This document shows, one piece after another, positions 1 through 4,371 of a DNA stretch of 4,371 bases. Below the pieces are notes generated by a model, which worked only from the letters and a program-made list of their open reading frames with translations, searched no databases and had not been told where the DNA came from. Source of the DNA: a virus (lineage: Duplodnaviria > Heunggongvirae > Uroviricota > Caudoviricetes); the IMG/VR virus record IMGVR_UViG_2537561992_000028, positions 1-4,371 of that record; one strand, 5' to 3'. Positions within the stretch are counted from its first letter, which is position 1. Each line of letters starts with the position of its first letter. The position numbers and the translations under genes were made by a program.

Positions 1-168
1 AACCACACGACCACAGAGACAGCACTGCCCGGCATCCCTGAGCCAGATATGACGCTTGAGGGAAACACGTGCACTGCCACTGACACGACGCTGTTCACCC
101 TTCAGAATATTCACCCGCCGGGTGTTCAGAGTTTTGATTCTGCCCGGTAACGTACGAAGCACAGCCAT
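1..168 (-). CDS. HNH endonuclease-like protein, N-terminal part only (gene runs off the left edge of the window)
   Basis: ATG at 168-166 with GAGGA 6 nt upstream. Translation is MAVLRTLPGRIKTLNTRRVNILKGEQRRVSGSARVSLKRHIWLRDAGQCCLCGRVV..., open to the window edge. The W-x-R-D stretch followed by C-x2-C is the usual start of the zinc-binding core of phage terminase-associated HNH nucleases. Not in the ORF track because it has no stop inside the window. Confidence 0.45.
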   Translation of the reverse strand, partial: MAVLRTLPGRIKTLNTRRVNILKGEQRRVSGSARVSLKRHIWLRDAGQCCLCGRVV

Positions 169-209
169 GTAAAATCCTCTCCATATAGCTTGTCACCAGA
201 GGAAAGAAA

Positions 210-395
210 ATGTCATCGAAAAACCGGACCCGCAGAACCACAATCCGCAATATCCGTTTCCCCAATCACATGATTGAACAGCTCAATATCGCCCTTGAAC
301 ATAAAGGTTCCGGTAACTTTTCAGCGTGGGTTATTGAAGCCTGCAGAAGAAGGCTGTCAACAGAGCGTTCGGGTATGAATTACATAATTAAGTAA
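210..395 (+). CDS. Small ribbon-helix-helix-like (DUF3950/YlcI-like) protein, 61 aa
   Basis: ATG at 210 with GAGGA at 199-203 (6-nt spacer). Basic N-terminus, then a predicted beta-strand (IRNIRFPNHMIEQL) and helix (NIALEHKGSGNFSAWVIEACRRR), the pattern of Arc/CopG-type RHH DNA binders. Diverges from the HNH gene; a similar small protein sits here in DLP12-type prophages (from memory). Confidence 0.5.
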   Translation: MSSKNRTRRTTIRNIRFPNHMIEQLNIALEHKGSGNFSAWVIEACRRRLSTERSGMNYIIK

Positions 396-500
396 CATGG
401 TGTTCACAGAACACACAGTTACCGGACACATCAGTTTTCCATTCGTCCCCCGGCAGTACAGGCTTCCCGTCTGACGGGATAGCCTGAAAAACACAGAAAA

Positions 501-665
501 TTATTTGTTATAATTAATATAACTTAACTCAAAAAAAAGCGACGAGAAAATCAGCATCAACGAGCAATAAGCGCCAATACGTGATAACAAATGGCAGCCA
601 TATTTATCTGCAGTATAAGCAATGGACAGGATAACCACACCAGAAACCGTCAGCATAAAATCCAT
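501..665 (-). CDS. Hypothetical small membrane protein (54 aa, two hydrophobic segments) in an AT-rich island
   Basis: ATG at 665-663 with GGGGAAG about 6 nt upstream. Translation MDFMLTVSGVVILSIAYTADKYGCHLLSRIGAYCSLMLIFSSLFFELSYINYNK. The track's 60-aa version starts at a TTG. AT-rich codons; could be spurious. Confidence 0.2.
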   Translation of the reverse strand: MDFMLTVSGVVILSIAYTADKYGCHLLSRIGAYCSLMLIFSSLFFELSYINYNK

Positions 666-806
666 TTGAACTTCCCCGGACAAAATCGACTCATCTAAAG
701 ATTTACAGCTCTTTTTATTATCAATATGTTAAAAGTAAAATAAACAGATGTTCAATAATACGAATACAAAAACGTGCTGAAAATCAATGAATCCATTTCT
801 GTGTTA

Positions 807-1061
807 TCAATTAATAGTGATAAACATCCGGCTTCTTCCACCATCGCACCGGACCAGCGACCATGAGGGGACAACGCCGCGCTCCGTTAACGCGGTAAAC
901 CCCGGTGTGTATCGTTTTTGATTATCCCCGCACACTCGCGCAGAGGATTCTCCCGGTCGGGCTGCGGTCTCTGTTAATGCAGGAATACGGCGACAATACC
1001 GCGCATGAATAATAAGGTCGCTCAACACACTGGCTGTAATGCAGCGGATACCATGCGGCAT
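807..1061 (-). CDS. Hypothetical ORF (84 aa); no Shine-Dalgarno, possibly a frameshifted continuation of the ORF at 1022-1246 or non-coding
   Basis: Open frame with ATG at 1061 but no SD-like sequence upstream. Overlaps the 3' end of the upstream ORF in a different frame. Arg/Cys-rich, GC-rich translation. Confidence 0.2.
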   Translation of the reverse strand: MPHGIRCITASVLSDLIIHARYCRRIPALTETAARPGESSARVCGDNQKRYTPGFTALTERGVVPSWSLVRCDGGRSRMFITIN

Positions 1062-1246
1062 TTAGCGGCATTCATCGTACACTCAACGGTTAGCTCTTCA
1101 TTCGTGGCATTCACCTGAAAGGTCCGGGAGTGTAATTGCGTACATTTACCACTGAACGAACCTTCAACAAGAACACGACCACGCTGCAAAATACGGAACG
1201 GAATTGTTCCCTGAAAAGGCTTTACGGTTACCAATAATTTCTTCAT
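1022..1246 (-). CDS. Hypothetical protein (74 aa from the ATG) directly downstream of Rz
   Basis: ATG at 1246-1244 with GGAGA 5 nt upstream, 23 nt after the Rz stop. Translation MKKLLVTVKPFQGTIPFRILQRGRVLVEGSFSGKC.... The track's start at 1264 is a TTG. No recognisable family. Confidence 0.35.
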   Translation of the reverse strand: MKKLLVTVKPFQGTIPFRILQRGRVLVEGSFSGKCTQLHSRTFQVNATNEELTVECTMNAAKCRMVSAALQPVC

Positions 1247-1269
1247 GCATTCTCCGAATAACAAAAATA

Positions 1270-1728
1270 CTAGTTAATACACTGAGTGCGGATATATTCC
1301 TGAAGCATTCTCAATGCTGCCTGGTCGCTGATGATTCCGTCTCTGATACCGAGAACGTTTCGTCCAGCAACCGGAGAGAGTTCGACGGCGGCATCATTGC
1401 CCACGCCGGAGGTGCCGGTGGCTTCACGCACGGTACCGGGGCAGGTGGCGTTGATCCGCAGGCGCTTACGACCAGCGGCAACATCAGCACGCAGAGTTTC
1501 ATTTTCAGCTCTCGCATCGGCTAATTCCCTCGAGTATTTTGCATCGAGCGCAGCAACATCGCGCTGGCGCACCTGCATATCAGTAATGGTTGCGTTTGCC
1601 AGATCCAGCTCACTGGCTTTTTTATCGCGCTGCGCTTTGTAGGTGATGGCGTTATCGCGGTAATGATTCAGCCCCAGACTAAGCGCACCACAGACCACCA
1701 GCAGAATAACGGTAAACGCGGAAAGCAT
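1270..1728 (-). CDS. Rz: Rz i-spanin (inner-membrane spanin subunit), 152 aa
   Basis: Translation from ATG 1728: [96 protein letters not shown].... This is near-collinear with lambda Rz as I recall it ([38 protein letters not shown]), with an N-terminal TM segment and a coiled-coil periplasmic domain. The track's 207-aa ORF is an in-frame upstream extension from a TTG with no homology support. Confidence 0.85.
1311..1517 (-). CDS. Rz1: Rz1 o-spanin (outer-membrane lipoprotein spanin subunit), embedded in Rz in the +1 frame
   Basis: [44 protein letters not shown].... Signal peptide with lipobox VSAC and a proline-rich mature part, matching lambda Rz1 (MLKLKMMLCVMMLPLVVVGC...CVKPPPPPAW). Lies wholly inside Rz, the lambda-type embedded arrangement. 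Confidence 0.75.
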
Positions 1729-1739
1729 TCGGTTTATGC

Positions 1740-1871
1740 TCACCCCAGCAGCCCCGACGAAGACAACATCATCCAGCCCATGGAAAGAAAAAGAGCAACC
1801 AGCATTAGTGAAAATGAAATGCCGACGATTACACAGAGGATCTTCGCCAGCATTATGAGTTTGTCTGACAT
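1740..1871 (-). CDS. Hypothetical small hydrophobic protein (43 aa) just upstream of Rz
   Basis: ATG at 1871-1869 with AAGGGG 5 nt upstream; TGA stop at 1742-1740, 11 nt before the Rz ATG. Translation [43 protein letters not shown], one long hydrophobic segment. Below the 60-aa cutoff of the ORF track; found by hand translation. Confidence 0.35.
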
Positions 1872-2041
1872 AGCTACCCCTTAATTGCCACAATTCACTG
1901 GGATACTACCCATAAAAAAGGGATGCTCCAGACCAGCAAAAATTTCCAGTTTGGTAATTGACTAATCATGAGTCGCAACTCCCTAATCAGTTTGCTAAAA
2001 TCAATCAAGGCAGCCTCCCATAGCTTACTGCCATAAACATA

Positions 2042-2078
2042 AAACCCCGTTTGCAACCAACAAACGGGGTTTTTACTT
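2042..2078 (+). terminator. Intrinsic (rho-independent) terminator hairpin in the endolysin-Rz gap
   Basis: Perfect 12-bp stem aaaccccgtttg (2042-2053) / caaacggggttt (2061-2072) with 7-nt loop. Followed on the plus strand by tt-ac-tttt-att, and on the minus strand by a shorter T-run. Looks stronger for rightward transcription but could act both ways. Confidence 0.6.
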
Positions 2079-2163
2079 TTATTCACTTGGGTTTTGCCAG
2101 TTCGCAGGATTTCGTGTTATCTGCCCGCGTTGGCCAACGTCATTTTTAAGCAAAATATTCTGC

Positions 2164-2697
2164 TTATCTGTCGATACCCCAGCACGCCAGCGCACTTTCC
2201 TGATCTCGCCGGGATACCTGACCGTAGCAATTATTTGAGCGGATACGGCAGTCTCTGCCACCGTCCTTAATCCACCAGCGAATCGCTTCGCAGGCACCTT
2301 TTCGATCACCTGCATTAATTCGTTTATAAAACGTCGACGGGAAACACTTACCGGGGCCAATGTTATACGGACAGAATGACGCGATCCCCGCTTTCTGGGG
2401 TTCGGTCAGCGGCACTTTGATGTTTTTCTCCACCCATGCCAGCGCCTTGTCACGTTCGATGGCGTTAACCTGGTCGCATTTTTCCTTCGTCAGTTTCATG
2501 CCAGGAATAACAGGCTTACCATCCACCCGGGTGGCTCCACGGCAGATGGTCCAGATACCCGCACCATCACGGTATGCCGTGGTGTGGTTACCTTCCTTTT
2601 CATCCAGAAACTGGTCGAGGATTTCAGGCGCAGACGCCCCTGCACCAATCAGCGCCAGAACGGCAGCCGACAGGCCGTATTTGATTTTTGCGTTCAT
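2164..2697 (-). CDS. R: SAR endolysin (signal-anchor-release lysozyme, glycoside hydrolase family 24)
   Basis: 177-aa ORF MNAKIKYGLSAAVLALIGAGASAPEILDQFLDEKEGNHTTAYRDGAGIWTICRGAT.... The Gly/Ala-rich weakly hydrophobic N-terminus is a typical SAR domain. The catalytic motif E-x8-D-x5-T (EGNHTTAYRDGAGIWT) is that of T4/P21-type lysozymes. No strong SD upstream. Confidence 0.9.
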   Translation of the reverse strand: MNAKIKYGLSAAVLALIGAGASAPEILDQFLDEKEGNHTTAYRDGAGIWTICRGATRVDGKPVIPGMKLTKEKCDQVNAIERDKALAWVEKNIKVPLTEPQKAGIASFCPYNIGPGKCFPSTFYKRINAGDRKGACEAIRWWIKDGGRDCRIRSNNCYGQVSRRDQESALACWGIDR

Positions 2698-2827
2698 GGA
2701 TATTTATCAGGATTTATCGGTTCCGAATCCCTGGATATGTTAAGCCTTCACCCCACCAGTGGTGGGCACTGGCGGGTTCTTAATTTCCCCGGATGATCGT
2801 GGATTACATTCCACCAGGAGATTACTT

Positions 2828-3460
2828 ATGCTTATCTATCCAGCGGCAGACCTCCGTTTACAGGGACGCAGAGCACAACCATGGGATAAAACAACCACTC
2901 ATAAATATCGTCCCGGTCAATATTATGACTTTCGTAAACACCCGGAACTGATCGAGACACACCTTGAGGATTTTGTTGAATATTCAGACAGACAAGCGAT
3001 TCAGACCTTTTTTTCTTTTGTTAAGTGGATCAACAGCAATTCATCTGCATTCGAGAGCACGGACTGCATGTTTTCAGGAACACCAAAGGTTGATGAATAC
3101 GCCCCGGTATTTGGTTGCACCCATGCGTCATCTGGCCGCTTCGAATTTTTGTTTCGCGATACGAAAATAAACCAAAATGAGCGAGCTGTCGGATGGGTAC
3201 TTAACAAACTATCGCTCTACCTTCAGAAAGAACGGCCCGATTTTTGTAAAGGAACCTTTGGCATCGTTCCCCTCATGACGGAATATACCGACTCCGGCGG
3301 TAACGAGTTCACCGGTTATCGTATTTGTGTCTATTTCGATGCTTACGGGAATGGAACAGAGGATACCTGGACTTCTCTCAACATCATGTTTGATGGCCTC
3401 ATGAAAGCCACCAAAAGAATGAGCAATGAAACAATCACTGGCGAGATGCGTCCCCTTTAA
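2828..3460 (+). CDS. Hypothetical protein of unknown function (210 aa), convergent with the late operon
   Basis: ATG at 2828 with AGGAG at 2816-2820 (7-nt spacer). About 127 codons (2828-3208) not shared with any other long frame. TAA at 3458-3460, followed by a short hairpin and T7 run. The track's 233-aa version starts at a GTG at 2759. No recognisable motif. Confidence 0.45.
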   Translation: MLIYPAADLRLQGRRAQPWDKTTTHKYRPGQYYDFRKHPELIETHLEDFVEYSDRQAIQTFFSFVKWINSNSSAFESTDCMFSGTPKVDEYAPVFGCTHASSGRFEFLFRDTKINQNERAVGWVLNKLSLYLQKERPDFCKGTFGIVPLMTEYTDSGGNEFTGYRICVYFDAYGNGTEDTWTSLNIMFDGLMKATKRMSNETITGEMRPL

Positions 3461-4000
3461 AAAATTATCCAGAATCTCACTATTTGCAGAGCGCTCTCTG
3501 TTTTTTTGAATACGGAAACACTCTGCGAGATTTCTGCTCATCACTTTCCGGCAATAATCGTAAAACGCCGCGAACTGCTCATCACGGCGTTTTTTTTCAC
3601 CTTCGGAAGGGATCTGCACCGACAGTTTTTTATTCAGTTCAACGACGCTGTTCTCCAGTTTTTCAATGCGTGATTCGATATCATCTTTTTCTGACTGTAT
3701 CGTGTTATATGCATTGTTAATTTGTATGGTATACCGCTCTTCTGAACAGAGGCGCTTTTCCGGCAACGGTTCGTTCCCTTCACATAACCCGGCAGCAATA
3801 TCCATGAAAAACTGCTTCGCCTTCTTTTTCGCCTCAGCTTCGTAAAACTCCAGCGGGGCACCTTCAACACGATCAAGATCAATCACCACATTTGGCAACA
3901 ACAGTGACGTATACCCACCAGTTTCCAGCGCCACAGTAACAGTAATCTTATCCGGGTAAATATTTATCCCTTTAACAACCAGTTCGTATTGTTTATTCAT
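3209..4000 (-). CDS. Hypothetical protein of unknown function (263 aa), directly downstream of and translationally coupled to the holin
   Basis: ATG at 4000-3998, 3 nt after the holin TAG, with GGGGAGAG overlapping the last holin codons. About 180 codons (3461-4000) not shared with the plus-strand ORF. Predicted beta-rich N-terminus, central charged helical/coiled-coil stretch (EKDDIESRIEKLENSVVELNKKL), and a C-terminal part that overlaps the convergent ORF. No recognisable catalytic motif. Confidence 0.55.
   Translation of the reverse strand: MNKQYELVVKGINIYPDKITVTVALETGGYTSLLLPNVVIDLDRVEGAPLEFYEAEAKKKAKQFFMDIAAGLCEGNEPLPEKRLCSEERYTIQINNAYNTIQSEKDDIESRIEKLENSVVELNKKLSVQIPSEGEKKRRDEQFAAFYDYCRKVMSRNLAECFRIQKNRERSANSEILDNFLKGTHLASDCFIAHSFGGFHEAIKHDVERSPGILCSIPVSIEIDTNTITGELVTAGVGIFRHEGNDAKGSFTKIGPFFLKVER
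3486..3507 (+). terminator. Weak terminator-like hairpin plus T7 run 3' of the plus-strand ORF (lies inside the minus-strand ORF)
   Basis: cagag (3487-3491) / ctctg (3496-3500) 5-bp stem with 4-nt loop, then ttttttt at 3501-3507, starting 26 nt after the TAA at 3458-3460. Stem is short, so function is uncertain. Confidence 0.3.
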
Positions 4001-4003
4001 CGT

Positions 4004-4210
4004 CTACTCTCCCCGCGCCGCCTTACGACGGTCCTCTCTGATTTTGAAATACAGGTTAGTAAGATACGTCAGCAGGCCAAACAGCAGACTCCCCAGCACA
4101 CCTATCGCCACCCACTGGGACGGAGAGACTTTGTCCAGCAGCTGCAGTAACCAGTATCCCGTCCCCACCGCTGACGTGGTGTATGACACACCTGTTGTGA
4201 TTTTTTCCAT
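4004..4210 (-). CDS. S: Class II holin (pinholin, phage 21 S-like)
   Basis: 68-aa [71 protein letters not shown]. Near-collinear with the phage 21 S holin as I recall it (...[14 protein letters not shown]...[22 protein letters not shown]). Two TM segments; GGAG about 11 nt upstream. Confidence 0.9.
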
Positions 4211-4254
4211 CTGATGTATGTCTCCGTCACCGCCGACAGAAAATGAAAGTAAAG

Positions 4255-4290
4255 AAAAACAAAAAAACCGCCAGTGTCACCCACTGACGG
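4255..4290 (-). terminator. Strong intrinsic terminator upstream of the holin, probably the late-leader terminator (tR' equivalent) read through by Q antitermination
   Basis: Minus-strand stem ccgtcagtg / cactggcgg (9 bp, one G-U pair, 5-nt loop) at 4268-4290, followed by T7-G-T5 (complement of 4255-4267), about 45 nt upstream of the holin ATG. The tR' assignment is by analogy with lambda and phage 82. Confidence 0.6.
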
Positions 4291-4371
4291 CCAACTCCGG
4301 GAGCCGTGATTATGGCATTCAGGCTCTGCTAAAAATGCCAGATAACATTCCGGCCTCCCCTGATTCAGGTT

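Follow-up and report, generated by a model that had tools for sequence, protein, structure and literature searches.

Long antisense coding overlaps in bacteria and phages are rare and contested, and most claims of them are based on expression data from one strain. Several known systems come close to the case presented here. The lambda-type moron bor is antisense to the late operon and lies next to the lysis genes. In the B3-like Pseudomonas aeruginosa phage Fc02, the genes olg1/olg2 and gene 10 overlap in antisense orientation, belong to the lysogenic and lytic strands, and are connected with superinfection exclusion (PMC9936078). Members of the poorly understood YdfR (DUF1327) family are normally found in lambdoid lysis cassettes, where they separate holin from endolysin. 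Residues 1-72 of the member from Escherichia coli K-12 bind the N-terminal catalytic half of RNase E, and this YdfR co-purifies with RNA (PMC13232886). Here we analyze a stretch of 4,371 nucleotides (nt) that covers positions 1 to 4,371 of the IMG/VR virus record IMGVR_UViG_2537561992_000028 and is referred to as the window. Its subject is a minus-strand open reading frame (ORF) of 263 amino acids (aa), termed ORF263, which joins a YdfR core to a domain encoded antisense to an unannotated plus-strand gene. We call the latter gene cargo and the antisense frame asORF.

We propose that ORF263 is a real late gene of chimeric architecture, that its asORF part is encoded antisense within cargo, and that this part functions in the late phase as a partner or antagonist. 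To this explanation as a whole we assign a probability of roughly 0.7. Taken on their own, the architecture and the conclusion that asORF is coding, both of which follow from sequence comparison, we hold with high confidence.

The window comprises a lambdoid lysis cassette on the minus strand, with the order holin, ORF263, lysozyme and Rz/Rz1 (Table 1). Its sequence is 100% identical to Shiga toxin (Stx) 1a-converting phages and to prophages of O26, O145, O157 and O91 strains, and the interval from S (the holin gene) to R (the lysozyme gene) is present at a coverage of at least 80% in 119 of 5,426 complete E. coli genomes. The holin stop codon TAG (4006..4004) is followed by ACG and then by the ATG of ORF263 (4000..3998). 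The initial annotation of this DNA, made from the sequence alone, had described a start 3 nt past the holin stop and a Shine-Dalgarno (SD) sequence embedded in the last holin codons, and both details are exact. A 4-nt gap between the holin and the next gene is found also in K-12 Qin (essQ-ydfR) and in the related loci L077/L078 and L075.

The same annotation took the product for an unknown protein in the endolysin slot. This placement is wrong, because the lysozyme gene lies downstream and is itself followed by Rz/Rz1, and the protein is a member of the YdfR/DUF1327 family. It was correctly stated that no lysozyme, amidase or peptidase signature is recognizable; the protein is nevertheless not devoid of motifs, since aa 1-96 match PF07041 with 116 bits against a cut-off of 25. 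Of the profile and structure searches recommended at that time, the former thus revealed DUF1327, and a fold search of the Protein Data Bank (PDB) with the ORF263 model gave no match. The proposed central coiled-coil-like region is plausible at low confidence, with helices predicted by AlphaFold2 (AF2) at residues 88-182 with predicted local distance difference test (pLDDT) values below 50. In the DUF1327 domain the model contains three beta-strands and a helix (pLDDT 64-88 over aa 4-70), and ORF263 shares with K-12 YdfR 38% identity over 99 aa (E=3e-20). Pfam, PHROG and NCBIfam contain no muralytic catalytic domain matching ORF263, no transmembrane segment was found in it, PADLOC models of defence systems match neither ORF263 nor cargo, and Rfam yielded a chance-level match only. 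An endolysin or other lysis enzyme was rejected as an identity of ORF263, given the lack of a catalytic domain in the ORF and the presence of R downstream.

The YdfR family provides a clear reference for where the ordinary part of ORF263 ends. Residues 1-168 cover the whole 183-position profile phrog_2091, and neither this profile nor phrog_1085 matches ORF263 further than aa 168-171. In the family alignment, an invariant core, which includes the motif FAAFYDYC within the first 162 codons, runs through NLAECF / QFAAFYDYCRKVMSRNLAECF (residue 162 in ORF263) and is followed by alternative C-termini. These are a short one (...NFVKIFEESKSLQ), a long-form domain of ~125 aa (SIHNDNFSD...TYLKVRI), and the 101-aa tail of ORF263 and its near-identical copies. 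Aa 97-162 are the last stretch common to ORF263 and other YdfR-family proteins; the alignment parts after residue 162, and both family-type C-termini, short and long, are absent from ORF263.

The boundaries of the foreign segment were derived from the un-invaded locus L077, which consists of S, 4 nt, a gene for a 287-aa YdfR, 36 nt, and R. Nucleotide homology between the window and L077 (blastn) extends over 4213..3504 and 2703..2160, and therefore 800 bp (2704..3503) stand in place of 397 bp encoding the C-terminal domain of the long-form YdfR. The tail of ORF263 aligns end to end with proteins of the asORF family, including the motifs F-x-[GS]-F and IGPF[FY]L[KQE][IV]; its identity is 85% to the 104-aa protein P0128, 75% to P0129, and 58% to the tail of P0132. 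Because ECFRIQKNRERSANSEILDNFLKG of the window aligns gaplessly to MGHNNDKSRVRLVNSEALDKFLKG, the junction is located at about asORF codon 4-5. The start of asORF is missing from the window, which has AGT where genes of the L049/L075 type have ATG, and no SD sequence. Without an SD and ATG of its own, the tail must be translated from the YdfR start, or possibly from the internal M154. On the basis of these alignments, ORF263 has the form YdfR(1-162)::asORF(~5-104).

Table 1. Coordinates of the features in the window (aa numbering refers to ORF263 unless a separate protein is named)
Feature	Position	Strand	Basis or remark
263-aa ORF, YdfR core (aa 1-162) fused in frame to asORF domain (aa ~163-263)	3209..4000	-	
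SD sequence GGGGAGAG of the 263-aa ORF, within last holin codons	4007..4014	-	sequence
DUF1327 (YdfR) domain, aa 1-96	3713..4000	-	PF07041, E=7.5e-34, 116.3 bits against cut-off 25
Helical/coiled-coil region and invariant core motif QFAAFYDYCRKVMSRNLAECF, aa 97-162	3515..3712	-	family alignments
asORF-derived tail, aa 163-263 and stop	3209..3514	-	end-to-end alignment with standalone asORF proteins of 89-107 aa
Dual-coding overlap, 252 nt; cargo codons 128-210 in register antisense to asORF tail	3209..3460	.	
Cargo gene, 210 aa, convergent with lysis genes; SD AGGAG at 2816..2820	2828..3460	+	homologues
Two-gene module (cargo and asORF), 800 bp	2704..3503	.	blastn breakpoints against L077, L003 and L075
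Terminator-like hairpin with T-run, weak, 26 nt past cargo stop	3486..3501	+	consensus scan alone; no evidence of function
Class II (phage 21 S-type) holin, 68 aa	4004..4210	-	PF04971, E=8.8e-33; PGAP 'class II holin family protein'
Endolysin R, 177 aa, SAR-like N-terminus	2164..2697	-	PF00959, E=1.3e-25; PGAP 'lysozyme'
Rz / Rz1 spanin genes	1270..1893 / 1311..1517		downstream of R
PGAP, Prokaryotic Genome Annotation Pipeline; SAR, signal-arrest-release.

In a rival explanation, a moron on the opposite strand would have truncated ydfR, the 101-aa tail would be a meaningless product of read-through, and the protein would be non-functional or just a truncated YdfR. Among shadow ORFs, antisense frames in register are the most common, the tail belongs to no Pfam or PHROG family and is modelled with low confidence, and the automatic annotation of the gene together with frameshifts in some of its copies (both are described below) points in the same direction. 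Accidental antisense read-through was in fact our initial working hypothesis; it was rejected after the family-wide frame analysis and the discovery of diverged fusions.

The frame analysis is as follows. The TAG stop of ORF263 is the complement of the CTA codon for Leu128 of cargo. Frames of the asORF type run in register antisense to the last ~82-97 cargo codons and end at cargo codon ~128. Stop codons were counted in 37 diverged genes for cargo. In the C-terminal part, the antisense frame in register contains 0.13 per 100 codons and none at all in 35 genes; all other combinations of alternative frame and half contain 4-10 per 100 codons, and in none of the 37 genes is any of them open. The boundary at codon 128 was picked after seeing the data, and the control over all frames is independent of its fine placement. 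In nearly every lineage an ATG follows 9-36 nt beyond the cargo stop, preceded in most of them by an SD sequence of GGAG, GAGG or GGAGG type, so that asORF is an ORF of 89-107 aa with its stop at cargo codon 128, 124 or 117. Such standalone ORFs with their own SD and ATG align with the tail end to end in lineages down to 37% cargo identity.

The substitution pattern supports the same view. Because members of the family share ancestry, synonymous sites were compared in ten phylogenetically independent pairs. Cargo-synonymous differences amount to 413/827 (0.499) outside the overlap and to 181/551 (0.328) inside (Fisher P=3e-10), and the antisense amino-acid exchanges that they bring about are mostly conservative (I/V, E/K, D/N, A/T). 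The first codon position of the antisense frame has a coding-type composition inside the overlap (G.35, A.28, C.21, T.16), as opposed to G.24, A.29, C.18 and T.29 outside. Considering this constraint and composition, the single stop-free frame, the persistence of asORF in loci where cargo is broken (L073 and L050/L079), and the same full-length fusion kept in a diverged lineage, we regard mere truncation of ydfR as improbable.

Another way to explain the open frame is as a by-product of cargo codon usage, or of a constraint that acts at the RNA level on the 3' half of the gene (mRNA structure, terminator region). Third positions in the C-terminal half of cargo are A-poor and C-rich, which alone removes TTA, CTA and TCA codons, and for high-GC Pseudomonas-type members the permutation test is non-significant (P 0.15-0.67). 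A by-product would not, however, be expected to possess an SD sequence and ATG conserved outside the cargo ORF or to end at a conserved cargo codon (128/124/117). The shift in composition fits a coding first position (G>A>C>T) and goes beyond stop avoidance. Moreover, the frame decays precisely in prophage remnants without a late operon and is kept when cargo is inactivated. We therefore find it very unlikely that codon usage or RNA constraint produced the frame.

In phages from Enterobacterales to Pseudomonas, asORF (~90-105 aa) has the position of a late-operon gene, and its codons occupy the 3' 250-300 nt of cargo. Directly upstream is a gene that is co-directional in 36 of 38 loci; in many cases it ends 10-50 nt ahead of the ATG, and it is frequently a tail gene resembling lambda gpI. 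Roughly half of the distinct copies of the module (the ~53% identity tier and a part of the ~40% tier) follow such a tail gene, outside lysis cassettes. A search with the asORF profile against 1.84 billion cluster representatives returned 12 called proteins only, which is expected if gene callers drop asORF in favour of the longer cargo ORF.

The cargo gene is the other half of the module. Scans of viral and genome contigs produced 41 distinct cargo genes of ~210 aa, with identities of 37-100% and including those from Symbiopectobacterium and Pseudomonas; homologues of the same length are found full-length at 53-65% identity, and an SD sequence precedes the ATG in all lineages examined. The AF2 model has a compact alpha/beta fold (predicted template modelling score 0.74, pLDDT 80-90 over residues 60-205). 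Judged by its homologues and by this predicted fold, cargo is a real gene. It is missing from the PGAP annotation of the O26 chromosome as well as from the records of Stx phages in DDBJ that we examined, in which the 263-aa ORF is annotated. Neither cargo nor the asORF family has a usable match in Pfam, PHROG, NCBIfam or PADLOC, apart from one cargo member with a sub-threshold match to DUF5659 (22.4 bits against 23.6). In several prophage contexts cargo is present without a DUF1327 gene, typically opposing the neighbouring late genes.

Some short elements and neighbours of cargo should be mentioned in their own right. Between R and cargo, ~60 nt upstream of the cargo start (plus strand, ~2752..2766), there is a near-perfect palindrome CCCACCAGTGGTGGG, which could be an operator-like site or an end of the module. 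In L012, L049, L055, L057 and L064, the stretch 15-45 nt ahead of the cargo ATG (compare 2790..2815 in the window) contains a semi-conserved element GGAGG-ATGGCTGA(N)3ACCTCTG. It resembles an SD sequence with a mini-ORF (MADYL* in L057) just before the SD of cargo, with the ATG out of frame in the window, and may represent a leader peptide or a regulatory site. The weak hairpin past the cargo stop falls inside the module, within codons ~167-172 of ORF263. Finally, in a Salmonella prophage (L008, 7618..8660) a cargo homologue adjoins an HP1-type holin, and the Kiwa genes KwaA/KwaB are located ~3 kb away.

The two parts of ORF263 exist separately in related phages. In L075/L076, a standalone 104-aa asORF that is 85% identical to the tail begins 4 nt after a phage 21-type holin, with the same GGGGAGAG and no YdfR part. 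L073 has a short-form ydfR-like gene with a normal end and, 98 nt further on, asORF as a gene apart that is equipped with an SD and ATG, and cargo on the opposite strand is frameshifted; this prophage retains genes for Q, holin, endolysin and terminase. The opposite situation is found in Salmonella prophage remnants flanked by host genes, where cargo is intact and asORF is decayed (three stops, no start). Among near-identical E. coli copies, ORF263 has a length of 263/264 aa in 15 loci and of 161 aa, without DUF1327, in 4 loci. A variant of 385 aa, complete in L050 and partial in L079 (1..733), has the order YdfR core::asORF::long-form domain, joined at ...FFLKV|DFSDQEWECNRPS..., and in both loci the N-terminal half of cargo (the first ~129 codons) is deleted.

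Each partner can thus be intact where the other is broken: cargo in the Salmonella remnants, asORF in L073 and L050/L079. A strict toxin-antitoxin model is not supported by this reciprocal loss, which reveals no strict dependence in either direction; PADLOC and Pfam yielded no toxin-antitoxin match. The losses are compatible with an antidote needed solely for lytic growth, and the comparison of the Salmonella remnants with the L073 knock-out fits a model in which the two genes are expressed antagonistically. They also suggest that cargo is selected at the level of the host or lysogen and asORF within the lytic programme.

The fusion itself is also present in a diverged lineage. Among the proteins returned by the asORF profile, P0132 (231 aa) and P0133 (296 aa) consist of a beta-rich DUF1327-like N-domain, a coiled coil and an asORF domain with 54-58% identity to the tail in the window. 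ORF263 and P0132 align over their full length in BLASTP (36% identity, E=4e-42). The corresponding loci L082-L084 contain an intact 210-aa cargo on the opposite strand, 65-67% identical overall and 69-70% in the overlap; the overlap of cargo and fusion measures exactly 252 nt and has no stops in either frame, although only 72-74% of its nucleotides are identical to the window. Further scans were made of metagenomes for P0132 and of viruses for P0133, with no result, and of viruses for P0132, which yielded L081 only. There, a standalone protein of 141 aa (2986..3411; 69% identity over 79 aa to the N-domain of P0132) is encoded directly upstream of a holin-like gene and lysozyme, which hints that YdfR-like proteins at lysis cassettes form a broader family that escapes Pfam. 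The diverged fusion and the adjacency in L073 together form a signal of the Rosetta-stone type, according to which YdfR-like proteins and asORF would work together.

Late co-expression with the holin, as suggested by the initial annotation, gains support from the coupling geometry kept in several phages and from the full-length fusion in the diverged lineage. On these grounds ORF263 is very probably a real protein made late with the holin. It does not follow that it serves lysis. The initial annotation favoured an accessory factor or regulator of lysis: the YdfR part would modulate holin and endolysin or the timing of lysis, the tail would be lysis-related, and the overlap with cargo would be incidental. 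Translational coupling to the holin is in accordance with this idea, and so is the recurrence of YdfR-like genes or the module at lysis cassettes (Qin, L077/L078 and L075; upstream of holins in L073, L081 and L083), to which the position of cargo next to a holin in L008 may be added. Stretches just downstream of the late promoter are nevertheless general hot spots for morons, and about half of the module copies are situated elsewhere, after the gpI-like tail gene. The searches revealed neither a transmembrane segment nor a lysozyme, amidase or peptidase signature, and the sole experimental data on YdfR in the papers searched concern binding of RNase E and RNA, not lysis (PMC13232886). A lysis factor is for these reasons an unlikely identity of ORF263. 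The fallback formulation of the initial annotation, something unrelated that is expressed late, comes near to the best reading of the C-terminal part.

The cargo/asORF module has taken the place of the 3' end of a long-form ydfR, joining asORF in frame to YdfR residue 162. A possible model of how the proposed late gene acts is the following. The fusion would be translated late from the late transcript, by coupling to the pinholin gene, and cargo would be translated from the opposite strand by means of its own SD, presumably in the lysogen as other morons are. As a rule, asORF is oriented along the late operon and cargo against it. The overlap would force co-inheritance of both genes, and convergent transcription with 252 nt of complementary RNA might establish mutually antagonistic expression states. 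The YdfR part would add whatever YdfR does, the K-12 protein being a binder of the RNase E catalytic domain and of RNA. With co-inheritance and antagonistic expression, the cargo protein or mRNA would have in the asORF domain a partner or antagonist that acts in the late phase, and the overlap would enforce the linkage; we offer this specific function tentatively, with more doubt than confidence. Still bolder is the idea of a novel, obligatorily linked two-protein cassette of temperate phages, in which an effector of lysogeny (for exclusion, defence or modulation of the host) and its late counter-protein occupy opposite strands of the same codons. Recombination could not part them, and late transcription would silence the effector and at the same time supply its antagonist. 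Such a cassette seems doubtful to us. If it exists, the recurrent fusion or adjacency with YdfR-like genes would tie the switch to RNase E-dependent decay of convergent transcripts.

A number of observations weigh against our proposal. The PGAP annotation is restricted to the initial 249 nt of the ORF, called a pseudogene ('DUF1327, incomplete, missing C-terminus'), and contains nothing else before R. The flag arises because ORF263 has no family-type C-terminus; since the fusion is kept in a diverged lineage and since YdfR-like and asORF genes are neighbours in L073, we judge the pseudogene call to be probably wrong. Four of ~26 near-identical copies (L014, L028, L032 and L033) carry single-base indels that break or uncouple the fusion. 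Frame disruption in close relatives had been named in advance as evidence against a coding gene and does occur, but all four cases are in homopolymer runs (A8 at 3590..3597 and A7 at 3501..3507, both minus strand, and T6-A3-G4 at the cargo stop, ~3455..3467) and are outweighed by frame conservation in the diverged lineages. They may reflect sequencing error or real slippage that uncouples the YdfR and asORF halves. In the AF2 model of ORF263, pLDDT stays below 50 beyond residue 70, the alignment over the tail being shallow for structure prediction. The N-domain of P0132/L082 has no Pfam DUF1327 match, and its hhalign comparison with YdfR (probability 53%, E=1.3e-4) is only suggestive. Within the overlap, amino-acid identity is 70% for cargo and 58% for asORF, and cargo third positions are still the most variable; the constraint on asORF is therefore real but weaker, and cargo is probably the older frame, with asORF overprinted. 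Fold searches with cargo retrieved generic sandwiches or uncharacterised phage proteins only, with weak hits in BFVD to uncharacterised jumbo-phage proteins, and hence suggest no function. Promoter scans revealed no convincing sigma-70 promoter for cargo, so its expression in the lysogen is something that we infer, and antagonism between cargo and asORF is pure inference as well. That ORF263, asORF and cargo are made as proteins is a prediction from the sequence.

The surroundings of the module display additional features. A strong, symmetric terminator-like hairpin of 13-14 bp (AAAACCCCGTTTG...CAAACGGGGTTTT) that could act on both strands is present at 2041..2073 in the middle of the lysis operon, in the 270-nt gap between the R stop (2164) and the start of the Rz ORF (1893). 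In the same gap between R and Rz, PGAP marks a frameshifted hypothetical gene in O26, and other Stx phages have an antirepressor gene there. In L082, one of the related phages with a diverged fusion, an inserted HicA/HicB toxin-antitoxin pair (1452..2106) separates the Q antiterminator from the fusion/cargo module, a further sign of a hot spot for cargo genes downstream of Q.

Taken together, the N-terminal two-thirds of ORF263 are an ordinary YdfR-family member in an ordinary place. For the C-terminal third and the antisense cargo, no description was found in the family libraries and papers searched. What appears to be new is a YdfR-family protein with a new C-terminal domain, combined with a deeply conserved antisense dual coding that, on comparative evidence, would be one of the rare well-supported cases. 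The support comprises 41 sequences from two bacterial orders, frame-specific absence of stops, translation signals, synonymous constraint and reciprocal natural knock-outs. Each frame can be mutated silently with respect to the other, which makes the system experimentally tractable. There are also gaps to be filled in the annotation of Stx1a/Stx2a phages and ~119 complete E. coli genomes, where cargo is unannotated, asORF is almost never called, and a probably functional fusion is labelled a pseudogene. The YdfR/DUF1327 family, in turn, gains a fusion or neighbour partner that can guide functional work.

Of the known YdfR proteins of lambdoid and Stx prophages, the long forms (287-330 aa, phrog_1085) and the short forms (169-183 aa, phrog_2091) are near-identical to ORF263 through residue 162; ydfR of L077 has 96% nucleotide identity to the YdfR core of the window and the same S-coupled position. 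They differ from ORF263 in their C-termini, in place of which it has the asORF tail. The Qin prophage of K-12 resembles the window in its order of essQ, a 4-nt gap, ydfR (103 aa) and rrrQ, that is, class II holin, YdfR and lysozyme. Its YdfR ends soon after the domain, whereas ORF263 continues with the helical region and the FAAFYDYC core, and then with a tail of 101 aa whose origin is unrelated. As cargo presumably is, bor is a lysogen-expressed gene that opposes late transcription near the lysis cassette, but it has no embedded partner gene. Antisense overlapping genes of enterohaemorrhagic E. coli (e.g. PMC9927249) are similar to cargo/asORF as long antisense coding overlaps in the same organisms; those cases are mostly lineage-restricted and backed by expression, while cargo/asORF is backed by conservation (37% identity, two bacterial orders). 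Fc02 likewise is a temperate phage in which a lysogen-strand gene is antisense to a lytic-operon gene, and it shows that both can function. The Fc02 pair lies in the immunity region, encodes proteins of other sizes and comes with expression and phenotype data, whereas cargo/asORF is known from sequence. We rejected the overlapping exclusion genes of Fc02 as the same system and treat them as analogous only, given the other genome region. With Rz/Rz1, the classic embedded pair, cargo/asORF shares the principle of two proteins from one stretch of DNA. Rz and Rz1 share one strand, with Rz1 in the +1 frame, and both act in lysis, while cargo and asORF are on opposite strands, in register, and probably belong to different stages of the life cycle.

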